The notes under the pieces were generated by a model, which ran no database searches, was not told the DNA's origin, and was given only the letters and a program-made list of their open reading frames with translations. A stretch of DNA of 64,000 nt from a virus. Below, in pieces: positions 42,482 through 58,162 of the stretch. Where the stretch lies: the IMG/VR virus record IMGVR_UViG_3300019487_000319, one strand, 5' to 3'. Position 1 is the stretch's first letter. Every line of letters begins with the position of its first letter. The position numbers were made by a program, and so were the translations under genes.

Positions 42482-42524
42482 AAATCACTATATTACTATT
42501 ATAAATAGTGTCTATGTCTGTCTT

Positions 42525-43611: not shown

Positions 43612-44559
43612 TTATATTTGACCCGAAATCCGTTTGTTTAATTCCTGTCTTTGCTTTTCAAGATCAGGTATAACATCTCTTCTCATTCTCTCTACATCCC
43701 TTTTCTTGTAGTCAAGTTCTTTTTTCTTTGTAGCTAAATCTCTTTCAGTGGCTTGTTTTTCTTTTTGTGCATTAATTTTAGCTTGTGCAGTATCTTTAGC
43801 TCTTTGTTCCGAACTGTAATCAGGTTCATCCAATCCAATCTCTATCCCACTAGGCGTTGCAGATAGCGGAGGATCACCCATTAATTCCAAAATACATTCT
43901 CTTACTAAATTAGTAATGTATTCTTTCATATCAGGTTTAGAGGGCTTAAAATTTACATCTTGTGAAGAAAATTTATCTACCAAGAGTCTAAAAAGGCTTG
44001 GGTCGAACCAACCGAATACCCATTGAAAGAATTTTCTTTTATTGTCTTCGGATTGTGTTTTTGCTCCTAATGCGTTTCTTATATCGGTAGAGTTTACTTC
44101 CTTCCCATCTACCTTAGCATCTTCTACAAAGATGACATATCCATGTTTTCTTCCTACTTCCATGTTGTTTTTATTTGATTCGTAAGGTTGAAAATATGAC
44201 TCTGTTCCCTTGCCTGTTAACCACACTTCTTTTCCGTTTTTTTGTCCAACGGAAATTATAAATCTAGGTTTATCTTTGTTGCTGACAGCAAATACAATTG
44301 CAGCATCAGGATATTTTTGAACAACTTCAACCGGAGAATATCCATTTTTTACTTTGATAACATGACTTGAAGGGATTCCATGTTTTACCCATATTGCTTC
44401 TTTTTCTGCAAAGGATAAAGGAAAATGAGTCGGCTCTACTTTATCCGAAGAAACAATAAATGTATCAGGACCAACCACACTTTTTAATTTGTTATAAATA
44501 GACAAATGTCCTTTATGTGGTGGTTGAAATCGTCCGTTGTATATTCCTATTGTTTTCAT
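43612..44559 (-). CDS. nucleotidyltransferase of the cytidylyltransferase/NMNAT superfamily with a C-terminal coiled-coil extension
   Basis: IGIYNGRFQPPHKGHLSIY is the (H/T)xGH motif in a GxFxPxHxGH context. The C-terminal third is Lys/Glu-rich. Confidence 0.55.
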   Translation of the reverse strand: MKTIGIYNGRFQPPHKGHLSIYNKLKSVVGPDTFIVSSDKVEPTHFPLSFAEKEAIWVKHGIPSSHVIKVKNGYSPVEVVQKYPDAAIVFAVSNKDKPRFIISVGQKNGKEVWLTGKGTESYFQPYESNKNNMEVGRKHGYVIFVEDAKVDGKEVNSTDIRNALGAKTQSEDNKRKFFQWVFGWFDPSLFRLLVDKFSSQDVNFKPSKPDMKEYITNLVRECILELMGDPPLSATPSGIEIGLDEPDYSSEQRAKDTAQAKINAQKEKQATERDLATKKKELDYKKRDVERMRRDVIPDLEKQRQELNKRISGQI

Positions 44560-45341
44560 TATGACACGTAATTCGTGAGTTCATATCTTCCAGTAGGCAT
44601 TCTGTAAATGCTTATATGGAGATATTTCTTGGTCGGCTTGCCCTTATATTGTAAAAGTTTGTAATGGGTATCCTTATGTTGTTCATATCCAATGCCACCA
44701 TACATATATGGTTGACGAATACCGTATTTGTCGGCTTCGCTTTGTTTATGTTCACTTGGGTCAATAACAATCTTGTTACTTTCAATGAACTGTTCAACCG
44801 CTGCTAGTGTTTCAGAAAGATTTTCGTAGAAGGGTTTATTTGTTTCAGTGACCGGGTCTTTCTCAGGTTGTGGTTTAATTATTGCATGACTATAACCCAA
44901 ATTTTCTCTAATTAAAGACTTGATGATTTCTTTCAATTCTTCTACGGATATTTTTGATTCTCGGATATCAGCCCAAGTGAGTCTATCAGGACCATTCGTT
45001 TCATAGTCGCCGATTCCTTGATCATCATCGTAGTGATATCGAGATGCTTTAACATATCCTTGTATGTTTCCCACTTCGTAAAAATTGTAATTGGCTTGGG
45101 CCACATCTTTTGCTACTTGATCTACATCTTCCTCAGTTTCTAAATCCATTCTTCCTTCACCATATTCGTAACGAATAAATAAAACTTCATCGCCTTGAAC
45201 TCTTTTTTCCACGGCAATCCATTGATAGTTGTTTCCTTGAGTTGGGTAAAACGCAATGAATTCGCCTTCTTTAATTTTATAAATAAGACCTAAAATGTCA
45301 TCTGGCGATTTTGACGGAAGTGGCTTAATTTCTCTATTCAT
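44559..45341 (-). CDS. hypothetical two-domain protein
   Basis: 260-aa ORF with an internal EELKEIIKSLIRENL segment between its two halves. Confidence 0.55.
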   Translation of the reverse strand: MNREIKPLPSKSPDDILGLIYKIKEGEFIAFYPTQGNNYQWIAVEKRVQGDEVLFIRYEYGEGRMDLETEEDVDQVAKDVAQANYNFYEVGNIQGYVKASRYHYDDDQGIGDYETNGPDRLTWADIRESKISVEELKEIIKSLIRENLGYSHAIIKPQPEKDPVTETNKPFYENLSETLAAVEQFIESNKIVIDPSEHKQSEADKYGIRQPYMYGGIGYEQHKDTHYKLLQYKGKPTKKYLHISIYRMPTGRYELTNYVS

Positions 45342-45371
45342 ATCACCATATAAATATGTTACATATCTTCT

Positions 45372-45405
45372 AAAAACAAAAAAGCCGTCCGTCAGGACGG
45401 CTTTG
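45372..45405 (-). terminator. rho-independent terminator after the sHSP gene
   Basis: AGCCGTCCgtcaGGACGGCT (8-bp stem, extendable by A-T pairs). The minus strand continues TTTTTTGTTTTT. Confidence 0.7.
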
Positions 45406-45419
45406 TTATATTTTGTTAA

Positions 45420-45902
45420 TTACCTCACTTCTATTTGTTTAACTGTATCCGTCTTTGGAGTCGGCTTTACCTTGTTGAGAGTAATTTCTAATATTCCATT
45501 TTCAAATTTAGCAGATACGTTGTTTTTATCAACATTCTCACCTAGGGAGAATGAACGACAAAAAGACGACCGTTTCAATTCCTTATGGATATATTTGTGT
45601 TCTTTTGTCTCAATGGATTGTTTTTCCCCTTTAATTCTAAGGACATTATCTTCTACTTCAACTAATACTTGTTCCTTTTTAAGACCTGGAACCTCTGCTT
45701 CAATAACCACTTTATCCAATTCATCTCTTATATCAACTTTTGGATAAGACCCTTTTCCAAAAAAATCCACTCCGAAATTTGAATGTAATTCCGGAAAGTT
45801 ATCGTTGAAGAATGTTTCAAATAGTGAAGAGAATGGAGTTAAAAACTCATCTCTATTTAAGGATGGAACCGATGTATTGTATCTAACTAATGAATTTTTC
45901 AT
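45420..45902 (-). CDS. small heat-shock protein (Hsp20/alpha-crystallin family)
   Basis: PKVDIRDELDKVVIEAEVPGLKKEQVLVEVEDNVLRIKGEK...FCRSFSLGENVDKNNVSAKFENGILEITL is a canonical alpha-crystallin domain. Confidence 0.85.
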   Translation of the reverse strand: MKNSLVRYNTSVPSLNRDEFLTPFSSLFETFFNDNFPELHSNFGVDFFGKGSYPKVDIRDELDKVVIEAEVPGLKKEQVLVEVEDNVLRIKGEKQSIETKEHKYIHKELKRSSFCRSFSLGENVDKNNVSAKFENGILEITLNKVKPTPKTDTVKQIEVR

Positions 45903-45978
45903 AATTGACCTTTCTTTTAATAACGTTTTAGTCTATTAAACGATTTACCCTCACAAGAAGCGTAAACCTTATCAGAAT

Positions 45979-46006
45979 ATATATAGAGTAAAAATAAGGT
46001 TTCAAG
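45979..46006 (-). promoter_or_regulatory. promoter candidate upstream of the sHSP gene: exact CTTGAAA (-35 of sigma32 type) with a CTATATAT -10-like box 13 nt downstream
   Basis: The minus strand reads aaCTTGAAAccttatttttactCTATATATattc. It can also be read as a sigma70-like TTGAAA plus TATATA. Confidence 0.35.
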
Positions 46007-46089
46007 TTATTTTATTCAGATAAAATTCAATGATGGATGTTGTTTTTAACTCCATTCTTAAACTCTTTATTGTCTATTGAACATGTGAT

Positions 46090-46134
46090 TATAAAAACGA
46101 AAACTCTCTACTACTAAAACAAGCAGTAGAGAGT
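46090..46134 (-). terminator. rho-independent terminator after the tail tube gene
   Basis: The minus strand reads CTCTCTACTgcttgttttagtAGTAGAGAG (9-bp stem) followed by TTTTCGTTTTTAT. Confidence 0.6.
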
Positions 46135-46166
46135 GTCCCTTAATAGGATTATTAGGCAGTATATAA

Positions 46167-46658
46167 TTAAAACTGTAGTATGGCGTAGTCGTACGACAAA
46201 GTAAGTGTAATTCCGAGTGGGTCGCCATTGTTCGTCCAGTCTAGGGTCTGGAAATCGGCATTAGTGATGAATGCACCTTTCAATGTCCATTCCTCAACCT
46301 TATCACCGACTGGTCCAAGGACATTTATGGTTATGTCCTTTTTATAGAAATCTTGATATCCATCACGGCCAGTAACCGATTCGTGAGAAAGACGAATCCA
46401 TTCCATTACAGCTTGGGCACCGGATGGAACAACTGGGTCATAAAGTTCAGCAGTAATTTCGTTCCAAATCGTCTTTCCTTTGTAGTATCTTTGAAGGTTG
46501 ATGTGGTCGAGGGCCTTGCGTTCGCTAGTTGGCTTTGGTCGGTCACATTTCTTCAAAATGAACGATGGGATACCATCGACATACATGATGAAACGATTTT
46601 GTGTTTTTGTTTCGAAGGCCGTCCAGAATATCTCATTGGAATTTAGTAAATCTGCCAT
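46167..46658 (-). CDS. tail tube protein (T4 gp19-like)
   Basis: 163 aa. FIMYVDGIPSFILKKCDRPK...NEITAELYDPVVPSGAQAVMEWI...WTLKGAFITNADFQTLDW...ITLTLSYDYAILQF matches the gp19-type pattern. Its context is the tail module. Confidence 0.7.
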   Translation of the reverse strand: MADLLNSNEIFWTAFETKTQNRFIMYVDGIPSFILKKCDRPKPTSERKALDHINLQRYYKGKTIWNEITAELYDPVVPSGAQAVMEWIRLSHESVTGRDGYQDFYKKDITINVLGPVGDKVEEWTLKGAFITNADFQTLDWTNNGDPLGITLTLSYDYAILQF

Positions 46659-46694
46659 AAAATTATCTTTCTTTTAATGTTTTATAATCCAACA

Positions 46695-46707
46695 CTAATA
46701 TAAATAT
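46695..46707 (-). promoter_or_regulatory. conserved box ATATTTATATTAG (late-promoter-like), 36 nt upstream of the tube gene ATG
   Basis: The plus strand reads ctaatataaatat. The identical 13-mer is at 52208-52220, with near-identical copies at 58114-58127, 45346-45357, 51811-51822, 54734-54746 and 42496-42508. Confidence 0.4.
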
Positions 46708-46782
46708 ACATCAAATAATAATTTGATTTTTTTTGTATTCGATTCTTAATTATTGTTACTGCGTTTGAACCAATGGATCAAT

Positions 46783-48339
46783 ATGAATAAAGAACCGATT
46801 ATTAAAAAATGTGAAGTCTGTGATAAGGATTATGAAATTCCACATCGAAAAAGGAGCAAAGCGTCTCAACGGAGATTTTGTTCTAAGTCATGTTCTAATA
46901 GAAGTCCCGATGTTTTAGAAAAAATACAACGTAACAAGTTACTTACATATAGGAAAAAATATGGCGTGGATCACCCAATGAAAACCAAAGAAGTTGTTTC
47001 TAATTTTAAGTCATCTATGAAGGAAAAATATGGGATAGAACATGCTTTACAGTCGTCGATTTTTTTACAAAAATCCAAAGATACTAAATTAGAAAAATAT
47101 AGTGATGAAAATTTTAATAATGTAGAAAAGATGAAAAAAACATGTTTGGATAAGTATGGTGTAGAAAATTATGTTTTAACAGATGAGTATAAGGAAAAAA
47201 CAAAACAGACTTGTTTAGAAAAATACAACGTAGAATTTCCTTCACAAGCAAATTCATATAAGGAAAAATACAAAAATACAATTTTTGATAGATTTTTATC
47301 ATCTGGAAGATTCGATAATTTTACTCCATTATTTGATATAAAAGAATACAACGGTGTTCTTAAAAATAAAAAATATGAATTTAAATGTGATAGATGTGAT
47401 CAGACAGTTTTGTGTAATTTAAATGATGGCAGGTTTCCATTTTGTTTCAAATGTGACAAAGATGACGCTTCATACGGTCAAAAGGAAATATACGATTTCT
47501 TAAAAGAAGAATTGGGAAACGATGTAACAATTTTAACAAACGAACGAACTATTTTATATCCTAAAGAAATAGATATTTATATACCTTCATTAAAACTAGC
47601 CATCGAATTCAATGGAACATATTGGCATTGTGAATTAACAGGAAATAAAAATAAAACGTATCATCTTAATAAATCAAATAAATGTATATCTAAAGAAATT
47701 CGTTTACTTCATATTTTTGAATACCACTGGATAAAAAATAAAGAAATAGTGAAATCTATATTAAGAAATAAAATAAATGTTACAAAAAATAAAATATATG
47801 CTAGAAATTGTTTTATTAAATCCGTAGATATGCATGATTGTATCGAGTTTCTTGACAACAATCACATTCAGGGACGTGATAAAAGTAGTTTTAAATACGG
47901 ATTATACTATGATGATGAGTTAATATCCATTATGACTTTTTGTAAATCCAGATTTGATAAAAAATATGAATATGAAATGTCACGTTTTTGTAATAAATTA
48001 AATCTATCTGTGATTGGTGGATCATCCAAACTTTTTAGTTATTTTATTAACAACCAAAATCCAAAATCTATAGTGACATACTGTGATAGAAAATATTTTG
48101 ATGGTTCTGTTTATAGTAATTTAGGGTTCACCTTTGTAGGCCATACACCACCAAATTATTATTATGTTAATCAAGAACACACTGAATTATTTAATAGAAT
48201 GTCTTTTCAAAAACACAGACTCCAGAAAAAATTATTTTCCTTCGATAAAAATCTATCTGAGTGGCAAAATATGAAAAATAACGGATTTGATAGAATATGG
48301 GATTGTGGAAACTCTAAGTGGGTATGGAAGATAAATTAA
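46783..48339 (+). CDS. three-part homing-endonuclease-type protein: KYG repeats + Vsr/PD-(D/E)XK-like nuclease + Mom-like acyltransferase-fold domain
   Basis: First ATG at 46783 (MNKEPIIKKCEVCDK). There are four ~25-aa repeats (KKYGVDHPM / EKYGIEHAL / DKYGVENYV / EKYNVEFPS). The nuclease core is KEIDIYIPSLKLAIEFNGTYWH...LLHIFEYHW. The C-terminus is FLDNNHIQG..YGLYY..EMSRF..VIGGSSKLF..IVTYCDRKYFDGSVYSNLGF. Confidence 0.6.
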   Translation: MNKEPIIKKCEVCDKDYEIPHRKRSKASQRRFCSKSCSNRSPDVLEKIQRNKLLTYRKKYGVDHPMKTKEVVSNFKSSMKEKYGIEHALQSSIFLQKSKDTKLEKYSDENFNNVEKMKKTCLDKYGVENYVLTDEYKEKTKQTCLEKYNVEFPSQANSYKEKYKNTIFDRFLSSGRFDNFTPLFDIKEYNGVLKNKKYEFKCDRCDQTVLCNLNDGRFPFCFKCDKDDASYGQKEIYDFLKEELGNDVTILTNERTILYPKEIDIYIPSLKLAIEFNGTYWHCELTGNKNKTYHLNKSNKCISKEIRLLHIFEYHWIKNKEIVKSILRNKINVTKNKIYARNCFIKSVDMHDCIEFLDNNHIQGRDKSSFKYGLYYDDELISIMTFCKSRFDKKYEYEMSRFCNKLNLSVIGGSSKLFSYFINNQNPKSIVTYCDRKYFDGSVYSNLGFTFVGHTPPNYYYVNQEHTELFNRMSFQKHRLQKKLFSFDKNLSEWQNMKNNGFDRIWDCGNSKWVWKIN

Positions 48340-50357
48340 ATCTTTTGGTCAATAAAGACCTCCAAGTGGTCAAGGGCATATCCTTTTGATAATCGGTTTG
48401 GATTCATTCCTTGAGATTTTGCATCCGTGGCCATCTTATGTAATTCCTTCTTGAACGCTTCCCTAAAGGTTGCCATATCGGTTTTAACCCACTCATTTTT
48501 TCTATCTAACACGTTTTCTTCCTTAACGTGACTTCCGAGATGATGCCAAATCGGTCCACTATAAGAGAATTTCTTTCGATAGTCGTTATTGTATAAGAAT
48601 GATGTATATTTTTCATCATAATCTATATCATCGTCATCATTGAATCCTTTATTTTTCCTTGAAAATGACCACGCACCGTTTGGTTTGTCTGTCATCGATA
48701 GATAGTCAGGGTGTTTGTTTGTTATTACATTTCCATTCTTGTCTCTGATGTAAGTAATTCTTTGTCTCTGACCCTTTCCTCGTTTCTTTGGGTCAACAAA
48801 TTCACTACCACCTAACAACAATTTTTCAATATACGGCCAGACAAAAGCGTAAATTCCCCTCTTCGATGGAGGTCCATGAAATGTGGTAGGCGGTCCTTTG
48901 TATCCTTTTTGTTTTGTTAAACTAAGACCACCAAAAGTAACAAACTCCATTTTTTTATCTTTAAATGGATTATGTTTTCCTTCAGCAACTTTTCTACCCC
49001 ACGTTATGTATGGGTCATGCATTCTAAATTTATCCATATCTGACATGTGCATTGACGAACGGTGTTTTACTATATTTTTACCTGTTTTTGTTTTAATCCA
49101 ATCTGACACTGAATCTTTTACATCGGAACTTGGATTTCCCCACCAAAAAATAAAATCAGAGTCTTCTCTCCATCTATCATCATTCCTATTATATCCTGGA
49201 ACCTGCTGATGCGTCATAGTTTCACTATCTGATGATATAGCTTTTACATGTAAATCATCATCAACTAGACCAATCCATATACGTGTTCCTTTTGATTCTT
49301 TGTAAAATGATTTTTTGTATTCTGGATGTTTTAAATCAAATGCAGCATCTTTTGGATGTGGAATTAAATACTCTTCCGGAGTATATTTTTTCTTTATGGT
49401 TTTTGAATATTTAGGGTTTTCTTCTCCTGATAAATTAAACTGAACGATGGTAGGGTCAAGGACTGTTCCATCTTTTAATTCTATCCAAGTATGTTGATGT
49501 CTTCCTTGTCTAATAATATAACCTTCTACAACCCAAAAATCTTTCATACCCCTTTTTATTGCCTCTTCTGAAAATACTTTAGTAAATTCCATACAAACAC
49601 CAGATTTATCACAGTGTAATTTATCAGAGACTTCTTTAGCTAAATCGGTGTAATTTTTTTTTAAATCTACTGATTCTTTTAATGTAACTTCTTTATCATA
49701 TAACTGATTAGTTGCATCTTTTAATCTCTTTAAGTCACCAAAATTACGAAGAGCTTTAAACACAATGTTTTCGTTACTAAATTCCCCCTCTTTATTAAGT
49801 CCAGATTCACGATAAGCGGTTATTGATTTCATTAATGATTTCAATTTATCAACATCTTCCGTCTCGATAAATTTTGTTATTTGATCTTTTAACTGATGAT
49901 ACTTCTTTTTAATTTTTTCTTTATCTAATTCTATGTTTTCTCTTTTTGGTTCCTGTATCCATTCATCATGTAAAATAGAATAGATTCCTATGGATCTATT
50001 TGTGTCAGCAATATCTTGAAGATACACTTCAACTTTATGACCTTTAATGTCAATATTTTGGTGTTGAGTATTCCACTTAAAACCAAAATTATCCATTATC
50101 TTTCTTAGGTATTCTGGATTTATTTTCTCCTTGGAAGCATCAACTAATATATGAAGGTCTATATCACTTGTTGGGGTCCAGTTATAATTTGCTGCCGAAC
50201 CTAAAAAGTAAATATCTTGAATACCACCTTTAAGGTCCGTGGAATCATAAAAGTCCTTGGAGATTTTTAATAATCGTTTGCGAATCTCCGGTTTGAGTTT
50301 CATATCCTCATTCCAAAGATTCGGGTCTAACGTTTTATTGTAAACCCTAAGTTTCAT
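48336..50357 (-). CDS. multidomain protein: Pol-beta-type nucleotidyltransferase + transglutaminase-like Cys protease fold + unknown C-terminal domain
   Basis: YFLGSAANYNWTPTSDIDLHI is the GS-x(n)-DxD NTase motif. GVCMEFTKVF...GRHQHTWIELKDGTVLDPT gives the C...H.W.E...D(P)T transglutaminase-core pattern. 673 aa. Confidence 0.55.
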   Translation of the reverse strand: MKLRVYNKTLDPNLWNEDMKLKPEIRKRLLKISKDFYDSTDLKGGIQDIYFLGSAANYNWTPTSDIDLHILVDASKEKINPEYLRKIMDNFGFKWNTQHQNIDIKGHKVEVYLQDIADTNRSIGIYSILHDEWIQEPKRENIELDKEKIKKKYHQLKDQITKFIETEDVDKLKSLMKSITAYRESGLNKEGEFSNENIVFKALRNFGDLKRLKDATNQLYDKEVTLKESVDLKKNYTDLAKEVSDKLHCDKSGVCMEFTKVFSEEAIKRGMKDFWVVEGYIIRQGRHQHTWIELKDGTVLDPTIVQFNLSGEENPKYSKTIKKKYTPEEYLIPHPKDAAFDLKHPEYKKSFYKESKGTRIWIGLVDDDLHVKAISSDSETMTHQQVPGYNRNDDRWREDSDFIFWWGNPSSDVKDSVSDWIKTKTGKNIVKHRSSMHMSDMDKFRMHDPYITWGRKVAEGKHNPFKDKKMEFVTFGGLSLTKQKGYKGPPTTFHGPPSKRGIYAFVWPYIEKLLLGGSEFVDPKKRGKGQRQRITYIRDKNGNVITNKHPDYLSMTDKPNGAWSFSRKNKGFNDDDDIDYDEKYTSFLYNNDYRKKFSYSGPIWHHLGSHVKEENVLDRKNEWVKTDMATFREAFKKELHKMATDAKSQGMNPNRLSKGYALDHLEVFIDQKI

Positions 50358-50365
50358 TAACTTTA

Positions 50366-51310
50366 TTATTGAACACCTAAATAGCGTTCTGCATTAGCTA
50401 ATGACTCTTCATGACACGATGGGCAAAGAGTAGAAGATGTACCTGGATTTATTTTCTTTCCACATTTCATACATTTTCCGGTTTTTATAGCCAGTTTAAC
50501 CTTTTCTTGATGGTCATCTTTTTTATCTTCCTGAAGTTCATTATGCATTTTCAGTAATTCATCTGATAGTTTCTTAATCAATTCTAAATCTTGAATCACT
50601 GCTTGTTTACGATGAATACCTACCTGAGCAACACGATTTATATCTTTTATCAAATTAATTTCATGTTTTTCACTGTAACCATGTTCTTGTTCATGATCTT
50701 CGTTAATTATTTCACATAAAATACTAAGAATGTTTTCTTTTAATTTTGATGTAATTTCATCAGGCTTGCTACTAATACCATATTCTTTTCCCTTTGGCTG
50801 GGCACCCCAATAATGTAATTTTCCATGTTCTTCATTAACCGGAATGATATTAAGTTGTGGGTGTTTGGATTGAATTGCATCCATTTTTGTAGGATGTTGT
50901 GTAAATATCATTGCATCCTCTACTGATGGTTCATAACCTTTTTTAGTCAAATATTTACCATCTAATTTTCTTTGAACAATGTAATTCTCTCCACTTATTT
51001 CATTTTCCATTAAACCTAATTCTTTTTTACCATACATGGATGCGTATGCCGATTTTAGATCAACAGGAGAAGGTTTACCATCTATACGAAAATTTTTATT
51101 ATCTAATGGAACGTTATTTCTGACTTCAGGTTTCCCATCAGGCATTTGAACCGTAACGGTTGCTGTCTTTCCATCTTTACTGGGTTCGATGGTTAAAACC
51201 TTAAATGTTTTTGGTTGAAGACCTGTGGTCACGAGGGTTATCTTTGAATAGGTTTGTACACCCTTTGTATCCTTATCACCGCCACTTGTTATTTGAGATG
51301 TAGATATCAT
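50366..51310 (-). CDS. hypothetical protein with a C-terminal zinc ribbon
   Basis: 314 aa, ending CMKCGKKINPGTSSTLCPSCHEE. Confidence 0.5.
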   Translation of the reverse strand: MISTSQITSGGDKDTKGVQTYSKITLVTTGLQPKTFKVLTIEPSKDGKTATVTVQMPDGKPEVRNNVPLDNKNFRIDGKPSPVDLKSAYASMYGKKELGLMENEISGENYIVQRKLDGKYLTKKGYEPSVEDAMIFTQHPTKMDAIQSKHPQLNIIPVNEEHGKLHYWGAQPKGKEYGISSKPDEITSKLKENILSILCEIINEDHEQEHGYSEKHEINLIKDINRVAQVGIHRKQAVIQDLELIKKLSDELLKMHNELQEDKKDDHQEKVKLAIKTGKCMKCGKKINPGTSSTLCPSCHEESLANAERYLGVQ

Positions 51311-51810
51311 ACGTATTGACTTAAAATTTTTATTGTTTCTCGGGCAGACTTATGCAATATGCCGGTGCCACCCTTGTTATTCCATTCAGTAATAACGACC
51401 TCTGTATCATCTATAATTATATCTCCAGGCCTCGAATACTCTTGTTTTTTATGTTTGTTTGCAACTAAAATGATGTCCGATTCTCTGAGATTAGGTATAT
51501 TTTTTCTTAACCAACTATGTTTACCTCTATAAACCCCATTATTCCTTTCATTCTCCTTCCCCATAGCACTTAATATTTTAACAATCATGAAGTTAGAATA
51601 AATATAATTCCACATATCCTTGGAATAAGGCAACCATTCTAATTCCGAAAAAAACCTTTCTACCCCATGTTTTCGTATTTGAACCCATATAGGGTCATCA
51701 TCGTTAAAATAATAATTCATTCTTTTTCCGGTAGTTTTTTCTACACCGGAGTCGAAGTCTGCTAAGACTCCATCCATATCGACATAAATAATTTTATTAA
51801 CATCACTCAT
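51307..51810 (-). CDS. HAD-superfamily 5'(3')-deoxyribonucleotidase-like protein
   Basis: IIYVDMDGVLADFDSG is the DxDxV/T motif I in the NT5C-type context. 167 aa. Confidence 0.7.
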   Translation of the reverse strand: MSDVNKIIYVDMDGVLADFDSGVEKTTGKRMNYYFNDDDPIWVQIRKHGVERFFSELEWLPYSKDMWNYIYSNFMIVKILSAMGKENERNNGVYRGKHSWLRKNIPNLRESDIILVANKHKKQEYSRPGDIIIDDTEVVITEWNNKGGTGILHKSARETIKILSQYV

Positions 51811-51862
51811 GAGTATAAATATAAAGAAAGATATATAAGAAATTGACGGAAGTTTTTTTGTT

Positions 51863-51990
51863 CTGTACTTTAGAGCGTCGAGCGAAACAATGAGCGATAG
51901 CGAAGTGAAGCGACGGGCTCGATAGATACAATAAAGAAATAATTAGTACTGATCTTAAAAGATCAAGAATAAAGTACTTTAAAAGTACAG
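51863..51990. other. structured intergenic element: a 9-bp inverted repeat enclosing a locally GC-rich (A)GCG(A) repeat block and GTAC palindromes
   Basis: CTGTACTTT (51863-51871) pairs with AAAGTACAG (51982-51990). Inside are gagcgtcgagcgaaacaatgagcgatagcgaagtgaagcgacgggctcga, tgatcttaaaagatca and aaagtacttt. Confidence 0.3.
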
Positions 51991-51993
51991 TAC

Positions 51994-52197
51994 TCAGTAA
52001 GGATGTATCCTCACAGGATTTTTTAAAATCTTACTTCCGATTTGTCGAACAAATGATGGATACTCTTTAGAGTCAATTTCTGTCCATGCGTGGGATGCAC
52101 TCCAGGGTTGTCCGTAGTCATGCCCACTAGAAACATGCGACAGATTTTCGTCATCATATTCTACAAAAACCGGCGTTATATCAGATGATTTTTTCAT
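51994..52197 (-). CDS. hypothetical protein
   Basis: 67-aa ORF preceded by an ATATTTATATTAG box. Confidence 0.45.
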   Translation of the reverse strand: MKKSSDITPVFVEYDDENLSHVSSGHDYGQPWSASHAWTEIDSKEYPSFVRQIGSKILKNPVRIHPY

Positions 52198-52207
52198 AAA
52201 CTCTCAT

Positions 52208-52220
52208 CTAATATAAATAT
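52208..52220 (-). promoter_or_regulatory. conserved box ATATTTATATTAG, 10 nt upstream of the ATG of 51994-52197
   Basis: The plus strand reads ctaatataaatat, identical to 46695-46707. Confidence 0.4.
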
Positions 52221-52245
52221 CAGGAAATAAAACCAATCGAAGAAC

Positions 52246-52887
52246 TTAATAGGTAAATTTCTTAAAAACAGAATACGGTTTATTCAAAGCTTTTAAGGCA
52301 ATTTCTACTTCTTTAAGACATTCATTTATTCCTCCACCTGTCAAAACAATATTGTTATATTGTTTCAAAAAATCCATCAAATCAGGAATATGAACACAGT
52401 CGGCCGCTGCCTGTAATAATGTATAAACTTCTTTCTTATCTATACGTCTATACTGTCTTAAATATTTTGCCCACATTTCTCTATCCATATCTCGTGAATC
52501 ACGAATGTTATTTTCATACATGAATCTTACAAAGTTAGCGACAGAATCTTCATCAATACTGTTATCCATACAATACCTAAAGAAAGCATAACCCTTATCG
52601 TAGAAAATTGAGGTATCTAAAACACTTTCGTCTAAAGCGTTGTCTAATAACCACGTCTTATAGTCTTGTTCGGACACCATTCCCATTGTGTCTTCTCCAT
52701 TATACAAGAAAATAATTTTGTAAGCTTCGTTATCTATACTGTTTAACCACTCACACCATTCGTGAGGTTTAAAAAATATTCCACCTTCATATTCTGGTTG
52801 AATATCAACATTCATTATAACTTTTCCCGAAAAAGATTCTTCTATTATAATGGATTTAAGAGAAGTCATTATAATTTTTTCCCTCAT
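52246..52887 (-). CDS. possible isochorismatase/nicotinamidase-fold hydrolase
   Basis: MNVDIQPEYEGG (compare VDxQNDF), FYDKGYAFF (Lys block) and IVLTGGGINECLKEVEIAL (nucleophile Cys block) occur in the D-K-C order of cysteine hydrolases. There is a large insertion, and the call is from pattern only. Confidence 0.35.
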   Translation of the reverse strand: MREKIIMTSLKSIIIEESFSGKVIMNVDIQPEYEGGIFFKPHEWCEWLNSIDNEAYKIIFLYNGEDTMGMVSEQDYKTWLLDNALDESVLDTSIFYDKGYAFFRYCMDNSIDEDSVANFVRFMYENNIRDSRDMDREMWAKYLRQYRRIDKKEVYTLLQAAADCVHIPDLMDFLKQYNNIVLTGGGINECLKEVEIALKALNKPYSVFKKFTY

Positions 52888-53350
52888 TATTTAAATCAAT
52901 GATTCTTTTTATTTCATTACCAGAATGTTGAATCAATGCTTTTAATCCAAAATGTAATGGATGTGGCCATTGTCCATATTCTACCCATTTATATTTGTCC
53001 GTTTCCCAATTTAAACGGGGGTCAAATTCGTCATCAACAATGGCCAAAAAATTATGATATTTAAATCCAGATTGTTTATCTTCATAAACATAAAGAGGAA
53101 TAAGTTTTTCAATGATTCCTCTATATCCTACTTCTTCAGTGGCTTCTCTTTTTACAGCCTTAGCAGGATTTTCACCTGAATCTATAGCGCCGCCCCACAC
53201 TCCCCAAGTCCCTGGTTGTAACACCATCATAGAACGGAGTGGTAACAATAACCTACCAGTGGTTTTCGCCATAAAAATACATCCAGCACCCTGTTTTCCC
53301 CAGAATCCGGTTCTTGATAAGGCACCACCATGTAGTTCGTCGTTACTCAT
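52856..53350 (-). CDS. Nudix hydrolase
   Basis: The Nudix box is GGAIDSGENPAKAVKREATEEVGY (Gx5Ex7REUxEExGU). Confidence 0.8.
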   Translation of the reverse strand: MSNDELHGGALSRTGFWGKQGAGCIFMAKTTGRLLLPLRSMMVLQPGTWGVWGGAIDSGENPAKAVKREATEEVGYRGIIEKLIPLYVYEDKQSGFKYHNFLAIVDDEFDPRLNWETDKYKWVEYGQWPHPLHFGLKALIQHSGNEIKRIIDLNNEGKNYNDFS

Positions 53351-53352
53351 AA

Positions 53353-54732
53353 TTAAACATCTTCTATTTTTGTAACCCTATTCCAAGGTATTATATCACA
53401 GGAATAAATTTCATATCCTACACCAGAAGAATATAATTCCAATCCTTCGGTATTTATAGTTAAAATAACAAGAGGTTCATCCTCGTCAAATTTATCAGAA
53501 AGCCAGTTCATCAAGGCATCTTCAAGTGAAGCTCTATCATCAAAGAGATACACAGCTTTTGAACAAAATTTGGCAGGTCTATCGGGTTTAGGCAATATAC
53601 CATTAATTTTCATATTTGGTATATTCTTTTTTGGGGTTACATGATATACCACTTTAGGTTGAACAGTGATATTTTCTGCCACTAAATCTTTCCAACTACC
53701 AACCACATCTTGATCCCAATATAACACTTCAATTATATTTTTGTGTTTAAAAAATGGATGATTATAAATAAACTCTTCTGTCTTGGGATTATGATGTAGG
53801 GTGGATTCTTTTGTATCGTCTGTAACAAGAAGAGAAACATTATCACCCTCCACATACACCAACAAACAAACATAATTGTTATCTACCTTGTTTTTTAAGA
53901 ATTTCCTGACTTGATAATGATATGCTTTATCTCTATCCCAACCATAAGCATTGTTACCACTTAAAATTAATCCATATTGGTCATATTTAGTTATTTCTTT
54001 TATTTCTCTTGGTGTAGGATTTATAAAAACTTCTACATAATCCGACTTACCTGCTAAATTACTTTCAAATGAATCAAGAAATTTTTCTGATATGGTTCCA
54101 GTATTTACTATTCCCTTAGCCTGATAATCTCTTATGTCATCTAACGTAGATTCACCACCCTCAACGAACCAATGAGCCATAGAACCTAATCCATGAATAA
54201 AATTTAAAAGTTGGTCTATTTTTAAGAGTTGGCCTTCCGGAGTGTGTTCCAATTCCACAGATTTAGCCATTTTATATAATGTTCTACTTCTATCGCTGTA
54301 TCTTCCGTTCCCACCGGAACCAATTTCACCAAAATTTCTAACTAACTTAGAACCAGATTTATCTGAAATAAAAGTGAACCATCTTTCCCATTCTTCCTCG
54401 GTAATATCTTTATAATTCTCCTTTTCAAAGAAGCTATCTGCTAATACACCATCTTTTATATCACTGTTTATAAATAACTTAGATATCAAAACTCTTAAAA
54501 TATCCCATATCTTTTTTAAGGAAGATTCATCTACACGTCCATATTTTGCAAACTTCGCCCATATTAATTTTAAGTCTCTAGCAGGTACAAGTTTCCAAGA
54601 CTGATGTTTTTGACCAGAATGAAATTCAGACTTAACATCTTCTAAGATATCAATCCAATCATCATCGATAGTAGCATGTATTGATTCAACAATACATTTA
54701 TCTATTATCTTTTGAAGTTTTGATACTTTCAT
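53353..54732 (-). CDS. hypothetical protein; the C-terminal ~110 aa carry an H-Y-E-like (ADP-ribosyltransferase-type) motif order
   Basis: 459 aa with N-terminal leader MKVSKLQKIIDKCIVESI. The C-terminus reads VVYHVTPKKNIPNMKINGILP ... AVYLFDD ... GYEIYSCDIIPWNRV. Confidence 0.55.
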   Translation of the reverse strand: MKVSKLQKIIDKCIVESIHATIDDDWIDILEDVKSEFHSGQKHQSWKLVPARDLKLIWAKFAKYGRVDESSLKKIWDILRVLISKLFINSDIKDGVLADSFFEKENYKDITEEEWERWFTFISDKSGSKLVRNFGEIGSGGNGRYSDRSRTLYKMAKSVELEHTPEGQLLKIDQLLNFIHGLGSMAHWFVEGGESTLDDIRDYQAKGIVNTGTISEKFLDSFESNLAGKSDYVEVFINPTPREIKEITKYDQYGLILSGNNAYGWDRDKAYHYQVRKFLKNKVDNNYVCLLVYVEGDNVSLLVTDDTKESTLHHNPKTEEFIYNHPFFKHKNIIEVLYWDQDVVGSWKDLVAENITVQPKVVYHVTPKKNIPNMKINGILPKPDRPAKFCSKAVYLFDDRASLEDALMNWLSDKFDEDEPLVILTINTEGLELYSSGVGYEIYSCDIIPWNRVTKIEDV

Positions 54733-54898
54733 ACCTAAATAAATATCAATTTCTAAAACGTTTATTTACGAGAATTTGCCAGAAAGCCGCGGTCCTTTAG
54801 GGAGTGGAGTAAATCAGAATGCCAATAATCTCCGTGACATTCTATGATTTTATTTAATGAAGGTAAAATCCTCTTTTCTTTTGTGTCTAATTTAACTG

Positions 54899-57800
54899 TT
54901 ATGCATTCGGGAAAGACGCACCGCTTGGAAGTACATTAAAATCAAGAACAATGAATTCTGCGGTTCTCGTTGGCTTAATGAAAATCTGACCATAGAGAAT
55001 GTTTCTATCAACAATGTCGGCTGTGTTGTTTTCTTCATCCATTTTAACGAAGAAAGCAAACAAACCAGAACGTTGTTGAACCGATTCCATGTAAGGGTTA
55101 ACAATGCTCAAGAATTTGTTTCTAGTAGCAGCTGTATTTTGTTCAAATACCAAGAATTTCGATGTAGAAGCGATAAACTTCTTCAAGTTAATCAACAATC
55201 TACGAACGTTAATTCTATCCAAAGCAGATGCATCGTTTTGTAGAGTCTTTTGACCCCAAACAACAACACCTTGACCTGGGAAGGCAGCAATTGGATTAAC
55301 CTTACCATCATACAGAGTGTCACGTTCTTCGTGAGTAGTTCTATCAGTTACCTGAATTGCCGTTGGGATACCACCACGGTTCAAACCAGCAGGAGCGAAC
55401 CATTCAGCAGCAACCTTGTCGTTAGCAGCATAAACTGCTGGAAGAACAACAGATGGAGGAACCGTTACAACTTTGTTAGTGTTTGTATCAAGGATTTTAA
55501 CCCAAGGATAATAAGCACCGGCGTAGTTGGTATCGTAAGCGGCAGCGTCAGACACAACTTCATCAATCTGACCGGCTGTTGGATTTCCATCATCAACATA
55601 CAAATCCATGATGAAGAAACAATCTCCACGAGCTTCACACATATCAACAACACGTCCGGTGACGTATGGGTGATGTTGGTGAACAATACCTGGAACCACA
55701 ATTAAGTTAATATCGAATTCATCGGAATTTCCTAAAGCGGTGATTGCTTGGTTATAAGCAACCGAACCAGCAGATGAAACCGTAGTACAATCTAATCCTT
55801 GGGTGTTACCAGGTATAATATCTCCACCCACATTAATTGCTGTGGCTGGTGATTGACCATCGAAACCACCTTGGAAACCAACAATGAATTTACGCATCTT
55901 GACGTAAGTGGATTCGTTAGCAGCATCGAATTCGGATGGTACAACGTTACTTCCACTTAGGAAAGAACCAATACCAACACCACCGATTCTGTAATCGTCA
56001 TCCAAAGCGAACGGAATGTTTCTTCCGATAGAACCGTAAGAACCAAACTCAGGCAATGGAGCAAAATATTCCTTATTATCGTCAGATGAACCAATTCCGG
56101 TTGAAGAAGTTGGATACAATCCAGCGAGTTCTACGTCCGCTCCGGTAGGAGCATCATCAAACGTCACGCCGGACGGATATTTGCCAGGATTTAGACCATA
56201 GACTGAAGCTTTGGTGTACTTCATAGCAGGAATCCAATGTCCAGCGCTAGAATTCATAGGAACTGTTAGAGCTTCGAATCCGTAAGGAATTGCTGTTTCA
56301 GGAAGAACCGAATCAGACATTTCGATACGAATATGTTTGCTGTTGTTGGAATACGTTCCAAATTCAATAATCTTACCCTTGAAATCAATGTAATCATATC
56401 TATCACCAATTCTACGAGCAATAAAGTTTGAAGAATTTGGGTCAAGATTTAAGTTATTGAATTGTTCAAGAACAACCGGACGTTTATCGGTATCACTCCA
56501 CCTTCTCAAAGTAAGAGTGAATGAACCCCAATCACTTCCAGGAACAGTTCCAGCCAATTTTACGTTACTAATTTCAATCTTGAACTGTTTGTTCATGATT
56601 GTTCCATCAGCTAACGTATGAACACGGAACAAACGGAATCTCGTTGGGTCTTGACCGGACTGCCAAGGAGCAATCTTTTGTGATAAGAACCAAGGAGTGA
56701 TAGCGTTAGTAATAGAAAATTCACTGTCTCCATTTGTCAAATCATCACTGAATTCATCGGTGAAGTTGAGTGGATCACCGGTGAATTGAGAAGCGTCTGG
56801 AAGAGCACTTCCAGAAACAAACCACTCGGTTCTATTACCATAAATTTCTGCAATAGCATTATTGAACACTTTATACAAGTAAGCAGCCTCAATTTTTTGA
56901 CCAGTCACTTGTAAGTCAGGGTCACCGACAGCAGCATTTAATCCGAATACATTCGTGATATATTTATTACTGGATGGGTTCAATGAGAATTGATATGTTC
57001 CAATAGTAGTCGAACTGTTACTGTTTTTCAACGTTAAGTTGAAATCGGAAGTGATATCCGAAGCATTAGTGTTTGCACTAGCGGTGATTAGTGAAGAATT
57101 CAAGAATCCCGGAGCAATTAAATCATTTATTCCACCAAACAAGGTATCATTCAATACTGCTAAGACTCTCAAATCCACAGTTGAACCGGATGACCACAAG
57201 TTTGTGCAAGGATCGAATGTTGGTTGACCATTTGGTGTGAAGTTACCATTGTATCTACCAAACGAACCGGATAGAACACCAGCCAATTGAATTGTTGGAG
57301 TTCCACAAGAACCAGTCGAAGTATAGAACGAACCACTGATTAGGTGAATAGATAAGAACGGAGCCGCACCACCGTTGTTGAAATTCAACGTCACATCATT
57401 AGCGAAAGAACCTGAAAATGTTCCGGCTGCAATTGAAGCAGAAATACTTGAACCAGTGTACCATGAGGCCGAAGGAGACGTTAATGTAGTAAAGCCCAAA
57501 CTAATGGTTTGTCCAGAATACAATACAGAACCACTTTGAGACGTTTTTGATAATAATGCGTTGTCCGCTGCTTGAGATTGGAACGTTACTGTTACCGATG
57601 CTGAATTCATCGTTAATATATTTGATGAGATGGAAACGCTTTGACTAAATTGTGCTCCGATAGAACCAGATAGAGTAATAAATGAACTACCTGATATTAA
57701 AGCACCAGCAGAACCGTGACGATTCCAAGTTCCTTTTACTGCCCAAAGAACAAATGGGTAATTTTGTTTATATCCAGTCAAACCACCTACACGACACACC

Positions 57801-58069
57801 GTTACAAGACCACGTTCTTTAAGGTATTCAGCGGCAGTATAAGGACCGTAATATACACCATCCGGAACACCGAATTGAGCTTGAAGTTCATTAATATCGG
57901 TAATTAGCTTAGGTGAAAATGCCGGACCTTTTGCGAATGGTGCCACAACAACGGCACCAATGTCAGCAACACCTTGTGCAATACCTGATTGGTCATTCTC
58001 ACGGGTAAATACACCAGGACTCACTATTCTGTCAACTGGACTAAATCTTCCACCTTCTTGGATCGGCAT
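54899..58069 (-). CDS. contractile tail sheath protein (unusually large)
   Basis: The N-terminus is SPGVFTRENDQS...VVVAPFAKGP. The C-terminus is YYPWVKI...VPPS...AAFPGQGVVVWGQKTL...ALDRINVRRLLINLKKFI...VFEQN. A strong SD (AGAGGAAAC) precedes it. A ~400-aa Ser/Gly/Thr-rich insertion is present. Confidence 0.85.
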   Translation of the reverse strand: MPIQEGGRFSPVDRIVSPGVFTRENDQSGIAQGVADIGAVVVAPFAKGPAFSPKLITDINELQAQFGVPDGVYYGPYTAAEYLKERGLVTVCRVGGLTGYKQNYPFVLWAVKGTWNRHGSAGALISGSSFITLSGSIGAQFSQSVSISSNILTMNSASVTVTFQSQAADNALLSKTSQSGSVLYSGQTISLGFTTLTSPSASWYTGSSISASIAAGTFSGSFANDVTLNFNNGGAAPFLSIHLISGSFYTSTGSCGTPTIQLAGVLSGSFGRYNGNFTPNGQPTFDPCTNLWSSGSTVDLRVLAVLNDTLFGGINDLIAPGFLNSSLITASANTNASDITSDFNLTLKNSNSSTTIGTYQFSLNPSSNKYITNVFGLNAAVGDPDLQVTGQKIEAAYLYKVFNNAIAEIYGNRTEWFVSGSALPDASQFTGDPLNFTDEFSDDLTNGDSEFSITNAITPWFLSQKIAPWQSGQDPTRFRLFRVHTLADGTIMNKQFKIEISNVKLAGTVPGSDWGSFTLTLRRWSDTDKRPVVLEQFNNLNLDPNSSNFIARRIGDRYDYIDFKGKIIEFGTYSNNSKHIRIEMSDSVLPETAIPYGFEALTVPMNSSAGHWIPAMKYTKASVYGLNPGKYPSGVTFDDAPTGADVELAGLYPTSSTGIGSSDDNKEYFAPLPEFGSYGSIGRNIPFALDDDYRIGGVGIGSFLSGSNVVPSEFDAANESTYVKMRKFIVGFQGGFDGQSPATAINVGGDIIPGNTQGLDCTTVSSAGSVAYNQAITALGNSDEFDINLIVVPGIVHQHHPYVTGRVVDMCEARGDCFFIMDLYVDDGNPTAGQIDEVVSDAAAYDTNYAGAYYPWVKILDTNTNKVVTVPPSVVLPAVYAANDKVAAEWFAPAGLNRGGIPTAIQVTDRTTHEERDTLYDGKVNPIAAFPGQGVVVWGQKTLQNDASALDRINVRRLLINLKKFIASTSKFLVFEQNTAATRNKFLSIVNPYMESVQQRSGLFAFFVKMDEENNTADIVDRNILYGQIFIKPTRTAEFIVLDFNVLPSGASFPNA

Positions 58070-58113
58070 ATAAGTTTCCTCTCTTTAGTTCTTTAAACGT
58101 CACGTTTATTTAA

Positions 58114-58127: not shown

Positions 58128-58162
58128 GTCATATTTTTTCAAAAGATAATTCAATTTATTTT

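Follow-up and report, generated by a model that had tools for sequence, protein, structure and literature searches.

A variable and probably layered gene interval between the tail sheath and tail tube genes of an uncultured jumbo myovirus

Location of the Interval and Its Genes

The sequence analyzed here, referred to as the window, is the 64,000-nucleotide IMG/VR virus record IMGVR_UViG_3300019487_000319. In myoviruses the tail sheath and tail tube genes are usually adjacent, and this adjacency is among the most conserved in contractile-tail phages. In the window the two genes are 8240 nucleotides (nt) apart (positions 46659-54898), a separation that a first-pass annotation had pointed out and that the Pfam and PHROG identities of both genes bear out. 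The interval between them, also called the island here, varies widely in size and content among related loci, and it contains a pair of enzyme genes that is present throughout one large clade. It is most readily explained as a plastic region that was built up in layers over a long time. A second variable interval lies downstream of the tube gene. The tail genes that anchor the two intervals are as follows.

54899-58069, minus strand: tail sheath, 1056 amino acids (aa), upstream anchor (Pfam Phage_sheath_1 1e-12, Phage_sheath_1C 2e-8, phrog_23 5e-72)
46167-46658, minus strand: gp19-type tail tube, 163 aa, downstream anchor (phrog_4542 1e-21, Pfam Phage_T4_gp19 8e-6)
42724-43557, minus strand: baseplate-hub protein, 277 aa, anchor past the second variable interval (Pfam T4_baseplate 7e-18, phrog_150 5e-18)
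40100-42481, minus strand: tape-measure protein, 793 aa (phrog_167 2e-6)

The sheath open reading frame (ORF) scores above the Pfam cut-offs for both of its domains (PF04984, 48.6 bits with a cut-off of 31.4; PF17482, 34.7 bits with a cut-off of 26.9) and is 83% identical to the sheath of the closest relative, locus L003. The tube ORF scores 26.1 bits against Pfam gp19 (PF06841), slightly below the cut-off of 28.2. The gene at the tube position is 60% identical to the window tube in Microcystis phage Mel-JY01 and 52% identical in Flavobacterium phage immuto. It is labeled as tail tube in Mel-JY01 and in the RefSeq record of immuto, and as tail completion protein in the other immuto records. 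The order tube, hub, tape measure is kept among relatives, and a 69-aa ORF (s69) lies between the hub and the tape measure. With the PHROG and Pfam matches and the identity to the tube-position genes of cultured phages, the earlier sheath and tube assignments hold up. The gene that had been called a chaperone after the tube is instead a baseplate-hub protein by Pfam T4_baseplate and PHROG.

All genes of the region are on the minus strand except one. Counting ORFs of 65 aa or more, the sheath-tube interval contains seven on the same strand, plus a homing endonuclease gene on the opposite strand; they are listed here from the sheath to the tube.

53353-54732, minus strand: 459-aa protein with three segments (only 10 homologues found)
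52856-53350, minus strand: Nudix hydrolase, 164 aa (Pfam NUDIX 1e-12, phrog_1198 4e-26)
52246-52869/52887, minus strand: 207/213-aa protein, a cassette missing from the closest relative (large family without a Pfam domain)
51994-52197, minus strand: 67-aa ORF (homologues at the same position in 11-16 related loci)
51307-51810, minus strand: NT5C, HAD-family 5'(3')-deoxyribonucleotidase-like protein, 167 aa (Pfam NT5C, phrog_2643 3e-28)
50366-51310, minus strand: 314-aa protein with a C-terminal CxxC...CxxC zinc-ribbon-like motif, between NT5C and the nucleotidyltransferase (NTase) gene (3-member cluster)
48336-50357, minus strand: 673-aa protein composed of an N-terminal Pol-beta NTase of 225 aa, an inserted segment at residues 228-357, and a C-terminal part of 320 aa (NTP_transf_2, phrog_36119 8e-46)
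46783-48339, plus strand: free-standing homing endonuclease HE528, 518 aa from ATG or 528 aa from a TTG at 46753 (phrog_3339 5e-127, phrog_559 7e-100, Pfam DUF7487)

Nine same-strand genes had been counted in this interval; only the seven listed are present at this length. The sole extra candidate for an eighth or ninth gene is a 42-aa ORF starting with TTG (51803-51931). It weakly resembles an overlapping ORF in L003, which conservation of the DNA accounts for, and the candidate was rejected. Most island genes abut or overlap their neighbors and have no terminators between them. In the 183-nt spacer between the 67-aa ORF and NT5C (51811-51993), the coding strand has two short palindromes, AGTACTTTTAAAGTACT and GATCTTTTAAGATC, before it reaches the TATTTATA box described below.

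A protein identical to the 459-aa ORF occurs on contigs of up to 340,916 bp, and on this ground the source is considered to be a jumbo phage. The exact protein and the gene order recur in JGI, ENA, and Logan assemblies. Because the order of the interval is identical in the independent Logan assembly, the arrangement is not a misassembly. A megablast search of GenBank phages for near-identical DNA, using positions 45000-59000, gave no match, and the nearest GenBank tube protein, that of Mel-JY01, is only 60% identical. A literature search on Mel-JY01 gave nothing. Going by these comparisons, the clade of the window has no cultured or deposited member, and Mel-JY01 and immuto, with tubes 52-60% identical, are its sole cultured relatives. 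The window comes from an uncultured jumbo myovirus.

Variability of the Intervals among Relatives

The window was compared with 104 related loci from IMG/VR. Window proteins were mapped on the loci, and all ORFs were clustered. Gene-order strings were drawn for 107 loci, and the comparison of gap lengths spans 106 related loci. The tube loci are the best-scoring 80 of more than 600. Locus L003 served as the closest relative, in several comparisons together with L028.

The gap from the end of the sheath gene to the start of the tube gene takes many values, ranging from 58 to 8956 nt in 33 loci, with 45 nt in the closest-set cases. It reaches 10.2 kb in a further assembly (L120 and L121) with the same backbone order. 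The sheath-tube interval holds 0-10 genes from 36 families (34 loci), and the tube-hub interval holds 0-9 genes from 41 families (77 loci). The junctions between the hub and s69, and between the tape measure and its next gene, are tight. Both gaps beside the tube are plasticity hot spots. Alignment with relatives, the comparison proposed by the first-pass annotation, thus bears out its suggestion of a hot spot at the sheath-tube interval, which is variable and has no invariant gene order.

The sheath and tube genes are adjacent (45-200 nt) in Mel-JY01, immuto, L022-25, and L098-106; adjacency is kept by these two cultured phages and ten metagenomic loci, all distant relatives. Adjacency would therefore be the parsimonious ancestral state here. 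The smallest inserts, with the order sheath, small ORF, NT5C, NTase, tube, are 1.76-1.82 kb in length.

A different arrangement was observed in L041-L049, L052, L053, L056, L059, L064, L068, L070, L073, L076, and L077, where the sheath gene is missing beside the tube and the order is u92, NT5C, NTase, (HE), tube. On contig IMGVR_UViG_3300034021_000409 (L044, L112, and L116; 37.7 kb), the search for a sheath homologue covered approximately 15 kb on the upstream side and 22 kb on the downstream side of the tube and found none. A glycosyltransferase and four ORFs without assignment open the tail operon of this contig.

A 484-kb uncultured megaphage, LR756508.1 (positions 203000-222000, L109), has two sheath paralogues (617 and 824 aa) that flank a u92 homologue. 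Past these come two tandem HE528-family genes, four small ORFs, and the tube, and another HE528-family gene, the third, lies beyond the tube. This is an independent 7.3-kb split of sheath and tube whose content is otherwise different from that of the window. In L118 (1-2802), just upstream of the neck and sheath block and on the opposite strand, an 847-aa gene resembling a CCA-adding enzyme (PolyA_pol and HD domains) lies with a 2'-5' RNA ligase gene; together they look like an RNA-repair-like pair.

Conserved Core, Domain Fusions, and Selection

NT5C and the NTase are directly upstream of the tube in 68 of 68 assessable loci of one clade. A neighbor-joining (NJ) tree of the tube protein groups every one of the 68 NTase-bearing loci in a single clade, which has 78 leaves; none of the 12 loci of the adjacent type belongs to it. 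The other ten leaves of the clade are cut contigs, except for L040, in which the NTase lies a few genes further upstream. An NT5C homologue is present upstream of the tube in 71 of 91 loci. The pair is encoded as a single fused protein of 385-389 aa in 24 loci. This distribution points to a single old acquisition of NT5C and the NTase that has probably been fixed since.

Fusions extend to other island genes. L087 and L093 encode the NTase joined to segments of the 459-aa family, and proteins P0006, P0008, and P0009 combine the N-terminal domain of the 459-aa protein with the 213-aa family. Genes for the latter kind of fusion are located directly past the sheath in L118 and L119. The backbone order of 459-aa family, Nudix, 67-aa ORF, NT5C, and NTase recurs across a subclade that includes L120 and L121. 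Because fusions link several of the genes to the core, the enzyme set behaves as a module and not as random cargo.

Island genes compared with their orthologues in L003 and L028 have ratios of nonsynonymous to synonymous divergence (dN/dS) of 0.10-0.25, including 0.10 for the Nudix gene, 0.15 for the 67-aa ORF, and 0.25 for the 314-aa gene. The ratio for the tube and sheath is 0.06-0.08. The G+C content of the island is 0.30-0.345, near the average of the window, and the endonuclease gene alone deviates.

The view of the interval as a recently acquired cargo unit was not upheld by these comparisons: the core is clade-wide, the backbone is subclade-wide, domain fusions join four island proteins, and the G+C content is not deviant. 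Neither deviant composition nor all-or-none presence, by which a horizontally acquired single-unit island would be recognized, was found in the interval as a whole. Its conservation is nested and layered.

Cassettes and Homing Endonucleases

Relative to the closest relative, the window contains four insertions with clean boundaries. The 213-aa cassette (window 52270-52876) corresponds to 1 nt in L003. The segment encoding residues 228-357 of the 673-aa protein (49288-49673) corresponds to 15 nt in L003/L028, the small heat-shock protein (sHSP) region (44801-46167) corresponds to 530 nt, and a GIY-YIG cassette upstream of the sheath (58070-58743) corresponds to 228 nt, both likewise in L003/L028. 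Single-gene cassettes are turning over at present.

An endonuclease-type gene on the opposite strand at the tube-proximal edge had been predicted correctly (phrog_3339 5e-127). The HE528 gene is convergent with the 673-aa gene and is located between the NTase gene and the putative tube promoter. The lowest G+C content of the window, 24.8% at 47001-48000, falls within it. In the NTase-tube spacer, L080 differs from L078 by an insert of 1564 nt that is exactly the endonuclease gene, compared with 9 nt in L078, and the flanks are 89-90% identical. L039 differs from L038 by an endonuclease insert of 1595 nt; here identity is 98.5% in the left flank but drops to 88.7% in the flank on the tube side. 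This asymmetry is the trace expected of co-conversion near a cut site. These clean cases of presence and absence are seen in homologues of relatives, and the closest relative of the window also has an HE528 gene. Genes of the HE528 family are found in many loci at three sites: past the sheath, before the tube on the opposite strand, and past the tube. The family is also found around the sheath and tube of the distant megaphage LR756508.

A second endonuclease gene lies at the other side of the sheath.

58163-58747, minus strand: GIY-YIG/NUMOD3 homing endonuclease, 194 aa, directly upstream of the sheath (Pfam GIY-YIG and NUMOD3, phrog_314 4e-30)

This gene is present in L004, L011, and L020 and absent from L003 and L005-L010. 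In L120 and L121 an Endonuclease_7 gene takes its place. Elsewhere in the window, a 1099-aa ribonucleotide reductase (RNR) ORF (21834-25133) contains an HNH-endonuclease-like segment at residues ~460-680. This segment probably represents either an intein or an endonuclease inserted in frame and would be the third selfish nuclease of the window.

The seg and mob enzymes of T-even phages cut endonuclease-free genomes in mixed infections, and repair copies the endonuclease along with neighboring DNA. By analogy, endonuclease cutting and co-conversion may drive the gene flux seen here.

Predicted Functions of the Interval Genes

The 459-aa family is always the first or second gene past the sheath in relatives. 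The protein had no match in Pfam, PHROG, NCBIfam, or PADLOC. Its N-terminal domain covers aa 1-215, and its C-terminal domain covers aa ~355-459 with conserved H..Y..E positions. The C-terminal domain is a small mobile domain with invariant H, Y, and E (vYHVTp..N...I...G..P / aVYl / yEi). Its relatives include a free 151-aa ORF in LR756508 (L109 10947-11402), a copy fused to an NTase-like N-terminus in P0010, and P0002. By eye, the pattern may resemble H-Y-E ADP-ribosyltransferase motifs. The 459-aa and 673-aa proteins fell in a shared cluster solely through fusion proteins, and no direct similarity between the two was found.

Two enzyme names from the first-pass annotation stand as given. The Nudix protein scores 48.7 bits against Pfam PF00293 (cut-off 21.1), its box GX5EX7REUXEEXGU is intact as GGAIDSGENPAKAVKREATEEVGY, and it is 82% identical to its L003 orthologue. 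Every NCBIfam equivalog that would specify its substrate scored far below cut-off. The HAD deoxyribonucleotidase scores 37.3 bits against the NT5C profile PF06941 (cut-off 24.8) and has the HAD motif DMDGV, of the form DxDxV, at residues 11-15.

For the 213-aa family, which lacks a Pfam domain, 937 homologues at 56-83% identity were found. For the window protein, there was no Pfam match even at E ≤ 10, and a profile search against PDB gave weak matches only, none of them relevant. An AlphaFold model (pLDDT 84) had no significant PDB or BFVD match (E ≥ 0.02, template-modeling (TM) score ≤ 0.40). The best Foldseek E-value was 0.02, and the matches of highest probability included the cysteine hydrolase 8rkz (probability 0.85, TM 0.39) and 2b34. 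Residues D22, K92, and C184 are invariant in the family and are placed at strand ends of the model, presumably the same strand ends that carry the catalytic triad in isochorismatase-like hydrolases. The earlier name "isochorismatase-like" is thus without Pfam support and has non-significant structural matches only. Some members of the family have an extra PF18905 domain, and one source labels a member "MmcQ/YjbR" (homologues P0011-P0130).

Two further names were right in part. The 314-aa protein, from a rare gene found in three loci, does have the CxxC...CxxC motif of a zinc ribbon at its C-terminus, but its Pfam zinc-ribbon matches are weak (E 0.01-0.8). The 673-aa protein had been called an NTase/transglutaminase. 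Its N-terminal part is a Pol-beta NTase (Pfam NTP_transf_2, 24.1 bits with a cut-off of 21), in which G53, S54, D65, and D67 are invariant in 40 homologues. The transglutaminase part has no profile support: residues 228-357 show a C..H..D pattern by eye (GVCMEF, HTWIEL, LDPT), but had no match to a Pfam transglutaminase family at E ≤ 10. The model of the NTase (pLDDT 91) was matched best by Foldseek to the ANT(9) adenylyltransferase (3.7e-4) and the CD-NTase CdnD (8e-4), and MNT was also matched. A profile search against PDB gave weak matches only, including GLD-2 and URT1, and none of these comparisons placed the NTase in a particular subfamily. The phrog_36119 nucleotidyltransferase has 649 homologues.

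The Tube-Hub Interval

The second interval, between the tube and the hub, is 2.6 kb in total and contains three genes.

45420-45902, minus strand: small heat-shock protein, 160 aa, moron-like cassette (Pfam HSP20 7e-24)
44559-45341, minus strand: 260-aa ORF (orthologue in L028, L029)
43612-44559, minus strand: cytidylyl/adenylyltransferase-like protein, 315 aa, with a GRFQPPHKGH motif (Pfam CTP_transf_like 1.5e-6)

A second insertion past the tube had been described and is real as to its three genes; the label "NMNAT" given to one of them is not confirmed. The sHSP gene was found in 2 of 107 loci and is missing from L003/L028. Consensus scans gave a sigma-70-like promoter match at 46005-45976 and a terminator at 45404-45381 for it. 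The 260-aa ORF had no family match in Pfam or PHROG. The 315-aa protein reaches the superfamily cut-off of CTP_transf_like (28.9 bits, cut-off 21). Against the NCBIfam NMNAT models it scored 13-21 bits, with cut-offs of 112-449, over residues 1-70 only, and against PDB NadD it gave an E-value of 0.012 over residues 2-43 only. The likeness to NMNAT comes from the N-terminal HxGH motif alone and lies far below the curated cut-offs. A cytidylyltransferase-like gene (NMNAT-like, c32, and c18 clusters) is located downstream of the tube in approximately 50 loci, and most members of the clade have a gene of this type past the tube.

Upstream Boxes and Transcription Signals

Short boxes precede several of the tail and island genes, and a terminator-like structure follows the tube.

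58115-58127, minus strand: ATATTTATATTTA box, 45 nt before the sheath start
52208-52220, minus strand: ATATTTATATTAG box, 10 nt before the 67-aa ORF (exact 13-mer)
51814-51821, minus strand: TATTTATA box before NT5C
46695-46707, minus strand: ATATTTATATTAG box (core TATTTATA), 36 nt before the tube ATG (exact 13-mer)
46103-46134, minus strand: terminator-like hairpin and T-run, 13-bp stem, just past the tube stop codon
45349-45356, minus strand: TATTTATA box before the 260-aa ORF
42496-42508, minus strand: CTATTTATAATAG box before the tape measure

Several internal genes had been credited with boxes of their own. This is correct for the exact 13-mer ATATTTATATTAG before the tube and the 67-aa ORF, the only two such copies on the coding strand. 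With two mismatches allowed, the 13-mer is not enriched (10 found versus 8.5 expected), and the true signal is the 8-mer TATTTATA. This 8-mer occurs within 100 nt upstream of the tube in 68 of 92 loci, of the tape measure in 51 of 66, of the sheath in 30 of 44, of NT5C in 21 of 45, and of the 67-aa ORF in 8 of 11, compared with a background rate of 0.03 per 100 nt. In the window, 9 of its 15 coding-strand copies sit 4-50 nt before a start codon. It is also present in Mel-JY01 and immuto and is lineage-wide (L001-L106), often preceded by A/C. Interpretation as the T4 late promoter TATAAATA was rejected since the coding strand shows the reverse complement, TATTTATA, and the orientation is therefore wrong. 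From its placement and enrichment, the TATTTATA box is a putative promoter element.

Since each tail gene has its own box and the tube is followed by a terminator, each looks like its own transcription unit, and an insertion between them therefore need not disturb expression. The island genes that carry a TATTTATA box are for the same reason probably co-expressed with the tail genes.

The term "late operon" used for this region in the first-pass annotation is loose, as the tail genes each have a box of their own upstream and the strand continues directly into replication genes. Past the tail genes this strand carries a DNA polymerase piece, genes for a single-stranded DNA-binding protein (SSB), UvsX, an exonuclease, and DnaB, and the RNR gene. 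The SSB, UvsX-like recombinase, exonuclease, and DnaB-like helicase genes lie at 25261-37437. A 460-aa piece in the same stretch matches only the C-terminal part of DNA polymerase profiles, and the DNA polymerase of the window may be split.

Interpretation

The sheath-tube interval is best explained as a lineage-specific, layered plastic region with an ancient core, an accreted backbone, and current turnover of cassettes and endonucleases; the rough probability assigned to this explanation is 0.75. It draws on direct observations, namely the anatomy of the region, its variability, the clade-wide core, the fusions, the clean indels, and the enrichment of the TATTTATA motif.

Three steps are proposed. 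In the first, NT5C and the Pol-beta NTase would have entered between a formerly adjacent sheath and tube at the base of the large uncultured clade, after which the pair would have stayed directly upstream of the tube, often as a fusion. In the second, the subclade of the window would have added genes in the backbone order 459-aa family, Nudix, 67-aa ORF, NT5C, NTase, giving one nucleotide-handling enzyme module under purifying selection. In the third, cassettes would turn over atop this module, including the 213-aa gene, the sHSP gene, the 314-aa gene, and the inserted segment of the 673-aa protein. Free-standing homing endonucleases would also have invaded repeatedly, with one family at three sites flanking the sheath and tube and the GIY-YIG gene upstream of the sheath. 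The split may be tolerated through the TATTTATA boxes of the sheath, tube, and tape measure and the tube's own terminator.

Several points weigh against this explanation. The sample of tube loci, as the best-scoring 80 of more than 600, is biased toward the relatives of the window. The ancestral adjacency leans on outgroups and on a simple NJ tree of a 163-aa protein, and dS is near saturation in the dN/dS comparison. In part of the clade the sheath is not near the tube, so that what the NT5C-NTase pair is linked to may be the tube itself and not a sheath-tube gap. The TATTTATA box is only 4-19 nt from some start codons and as a promoter would give nearly leaderless transcripts. Expression, cleavage, and enzyme roles in the region are predictions.

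As to those roles, the most economical assignment for the module would be a multi-enzyme set for handling nucleotides. A bolder proposal is possible but falls well short of probable. In it, NT5C-NTase, the 459-aa, 213-aa, and Nudix proteins, and the cytidylyltransferase-like protein would form an undescribed nucleotide pathway that is welded to the tube gene and expressed with the tail, with homing endonucleases that target the sheath and tube shuffling its parts. Such a pathway may serve in counter-defense against nucleotide- or NAD-based immunity or in nucleotidyl modification of virion components.

A more specific view of the same genes, compatible with the layered architecture but rather doubtful, takes the module to be a late-expressed counter-defense or salvage pathway related to nucleotides or NAD. 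The Nudix, the NMNAT-like protein, a nicotinamidase-like 213-aa protein, NT5C, and the H-Y-E-like domain of the 459-aa protein would rebuild or divert NAD+ or signaling nucleotides that host immunity depletes or uses. Nudix and NT5C are confirmed, the domain fusions argue for a single pathway, and the NTase resembles small-molecule adenylyltransferases and CD-NTases. For the 315-aa protein, the top matches in PDB and NCBIfam are weak and all of them are NaMN/NMN adenylyltransferases, but the NMNAT models match only the region of the HxGH motif and fall far below cut-off. Similarly, the 213-aa protein has the invariant D22/K92/C184 and counts the cysteine hydrolases 8rkz and 2b34 among its structural matches of highest probability, but its similarity to isochorismatases is not significant (E ≥ 0.02, TM ≤ 0.40). 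The ADP-ribosyltransferase-like view of the 459-aa C-terminal domain comes from visual inspection only. No specific match came out of the PADLOC and NCBIfam scans run on the island proteins. Freshwater Flavobacterium jumbophages are reported to have NAD-salvage islands that encode NMNAT-Nudix and NAMPT (PMC13573597); among the island proteins of the window no NAMPT, Adps, or Namat homologue was found. For NAD+ reconstitution of the NARP2 type (NAMPT and NMNAT), no NAPRTase/NAMPT match was found among the same proteins.

It is unlikely that the NT5C-NTase pair and the cytidylyltransferase-like gene are tied to the tail tube by function, either modifying the tube or tape measure or being packaged with the tail. 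MNT-type nucleotidyltransferases AMPylate proteins, and MNT structures are among the structural neighbors of the NTase. In each of the 68 assessable clade members the pair adjoins the tube, including those whose sheath gene lies elsewhere, a cytidylyltransferase-like gene is directly past the tube in approximately 50 loci, and the pair often shares the TATTTATA box. Descent alone, however, can preserve adjacency. Genes of the NTase family are also found away from tail genes, beside primase and RNR in cyanophage S-CRM01 and in Lak megaphages, and the pair has no features of structural proteins.

Transfer of the island into the sheath-tube junction as one unit, recently and horizontally, is very improbable. 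In its favor, the genes form one uninterrupted block in the same orientation, an endonuclease sits at one edge, and Mel-JY01 and immuto lack the whole of the block. Against it, conservation is nested, with a clade-wide core, a backbone confined to a subclade, and single cassettes that differ from the closest relative. The island G+C content (0.30-0.345) is near the window average, the endonuclease gene excepted, and the divergence of the island genes from L003 is of the same order as that of the sheath and tube.

An artefact of misassembly or of wrong sheath and tube calls, for which only the tube score slightly below the Pfam gp19 gathering threshold speaks, can be dismissed given the same protein and order in JGI, ENA, and Logan assemblies, the strong PHROG matches of tube and sheath, the 52-60% identity of the tube to tube-position genes of cultured phages, and the conserved hub and tape-measure synteny.

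The layered explanation implies that the sheath-tube junction can open and then act over the long term as a docking site for accessory genes. It also offers a picture of how such a junction opens: each structural gene would have its own promoter box, an old insertion would become fixed, and selfish endonucleases would settle at the edges. For annotation it carries a warning, since "islands" in structural modules may be old and coherent enzyme modules instead of recent cargo. The phrog_36119 NTase and the 213-aa and 459-aa families, joined by fusions and strict synteny, are flagged as one functional unit. The module would be of greater interest if its enzymes do form a new pathway.

Comparison with Known Systems

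Accessory genes inside a structural module are known from the g15-g18 hyper-variable region of marine cyanomyoviruses. As described by Millard et al. 2009 and summarized in PMC2984593, that region resembles the interval in having a fixed site in a block of virion genes beside the sheath and in holding from a few to ~14 mostly metabolic genes whose content differs between relatives. The window differs in that its gap lies between the sheath and the tube, with a second gap between the tube and the hub, and in that its lineage is an uncultured jumbo clade. The window region also has an NT5C-NTase core that is kept in all members and is often fused, and it has homing endonucleases at its edges.

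Free-standing homing endonucleases of T-even phages, both seg (GIY-YIG) and mob (HNH), spread by intronless homing with co-conversion of flanking markers. The endonuclease genes described here are similar in being ORFs in spacers between conserved genes, with exact boundaries of presence and absence, more divergence on the presumed target side, and low G+C content. HE528 differs in belonging to another family of large proteins (~500-650 aa; phrog_3339/559, DUF7487), known here from its sequence. This family is found at three sites around the sheath and tube, in relatives down to 50% tube identity.

Morons, a concept of Hendrix and Juhala, are autonomous units of promoter, gene, and terminator between late genes of lambdoid and other phages. 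The sHSP cassette may be like a moron: consensus scans give it a sigma-70-like promoter match and a terminator, it lies between a terminator and the next gene, and it is missing from the closest relative. In contrast, most island genes overlap or abut, some have the phage's own TATTTATA box, and the core is ancient.

The NAD-salvage islands reported for freshwater Flavobacterium jumbophages (PMC13573597) are comparable in that a Nudix gene and an adenylyltransferase-like gene with an HxGH motif cluster in a jumbo phage of freshwater type. The window differs from them in several respects: NAMPT is absent from its island proteins, and its Nudix and adenylyltransferase-like genes are separate, 8 kb apart, and on either side of the tube. 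Its 315-aa protein misses the curated NMNAT cut-offs, and its core of NT5C and Pol-beta NTase is not part of NAD-salvage pathways.

Taken together, the type of plasticity seen in the window is already known from hyperplastic regions, morons, and free-standing homing endonucleases, while the junction at which it occurs is unusual and the enzyme module is new to characterization.

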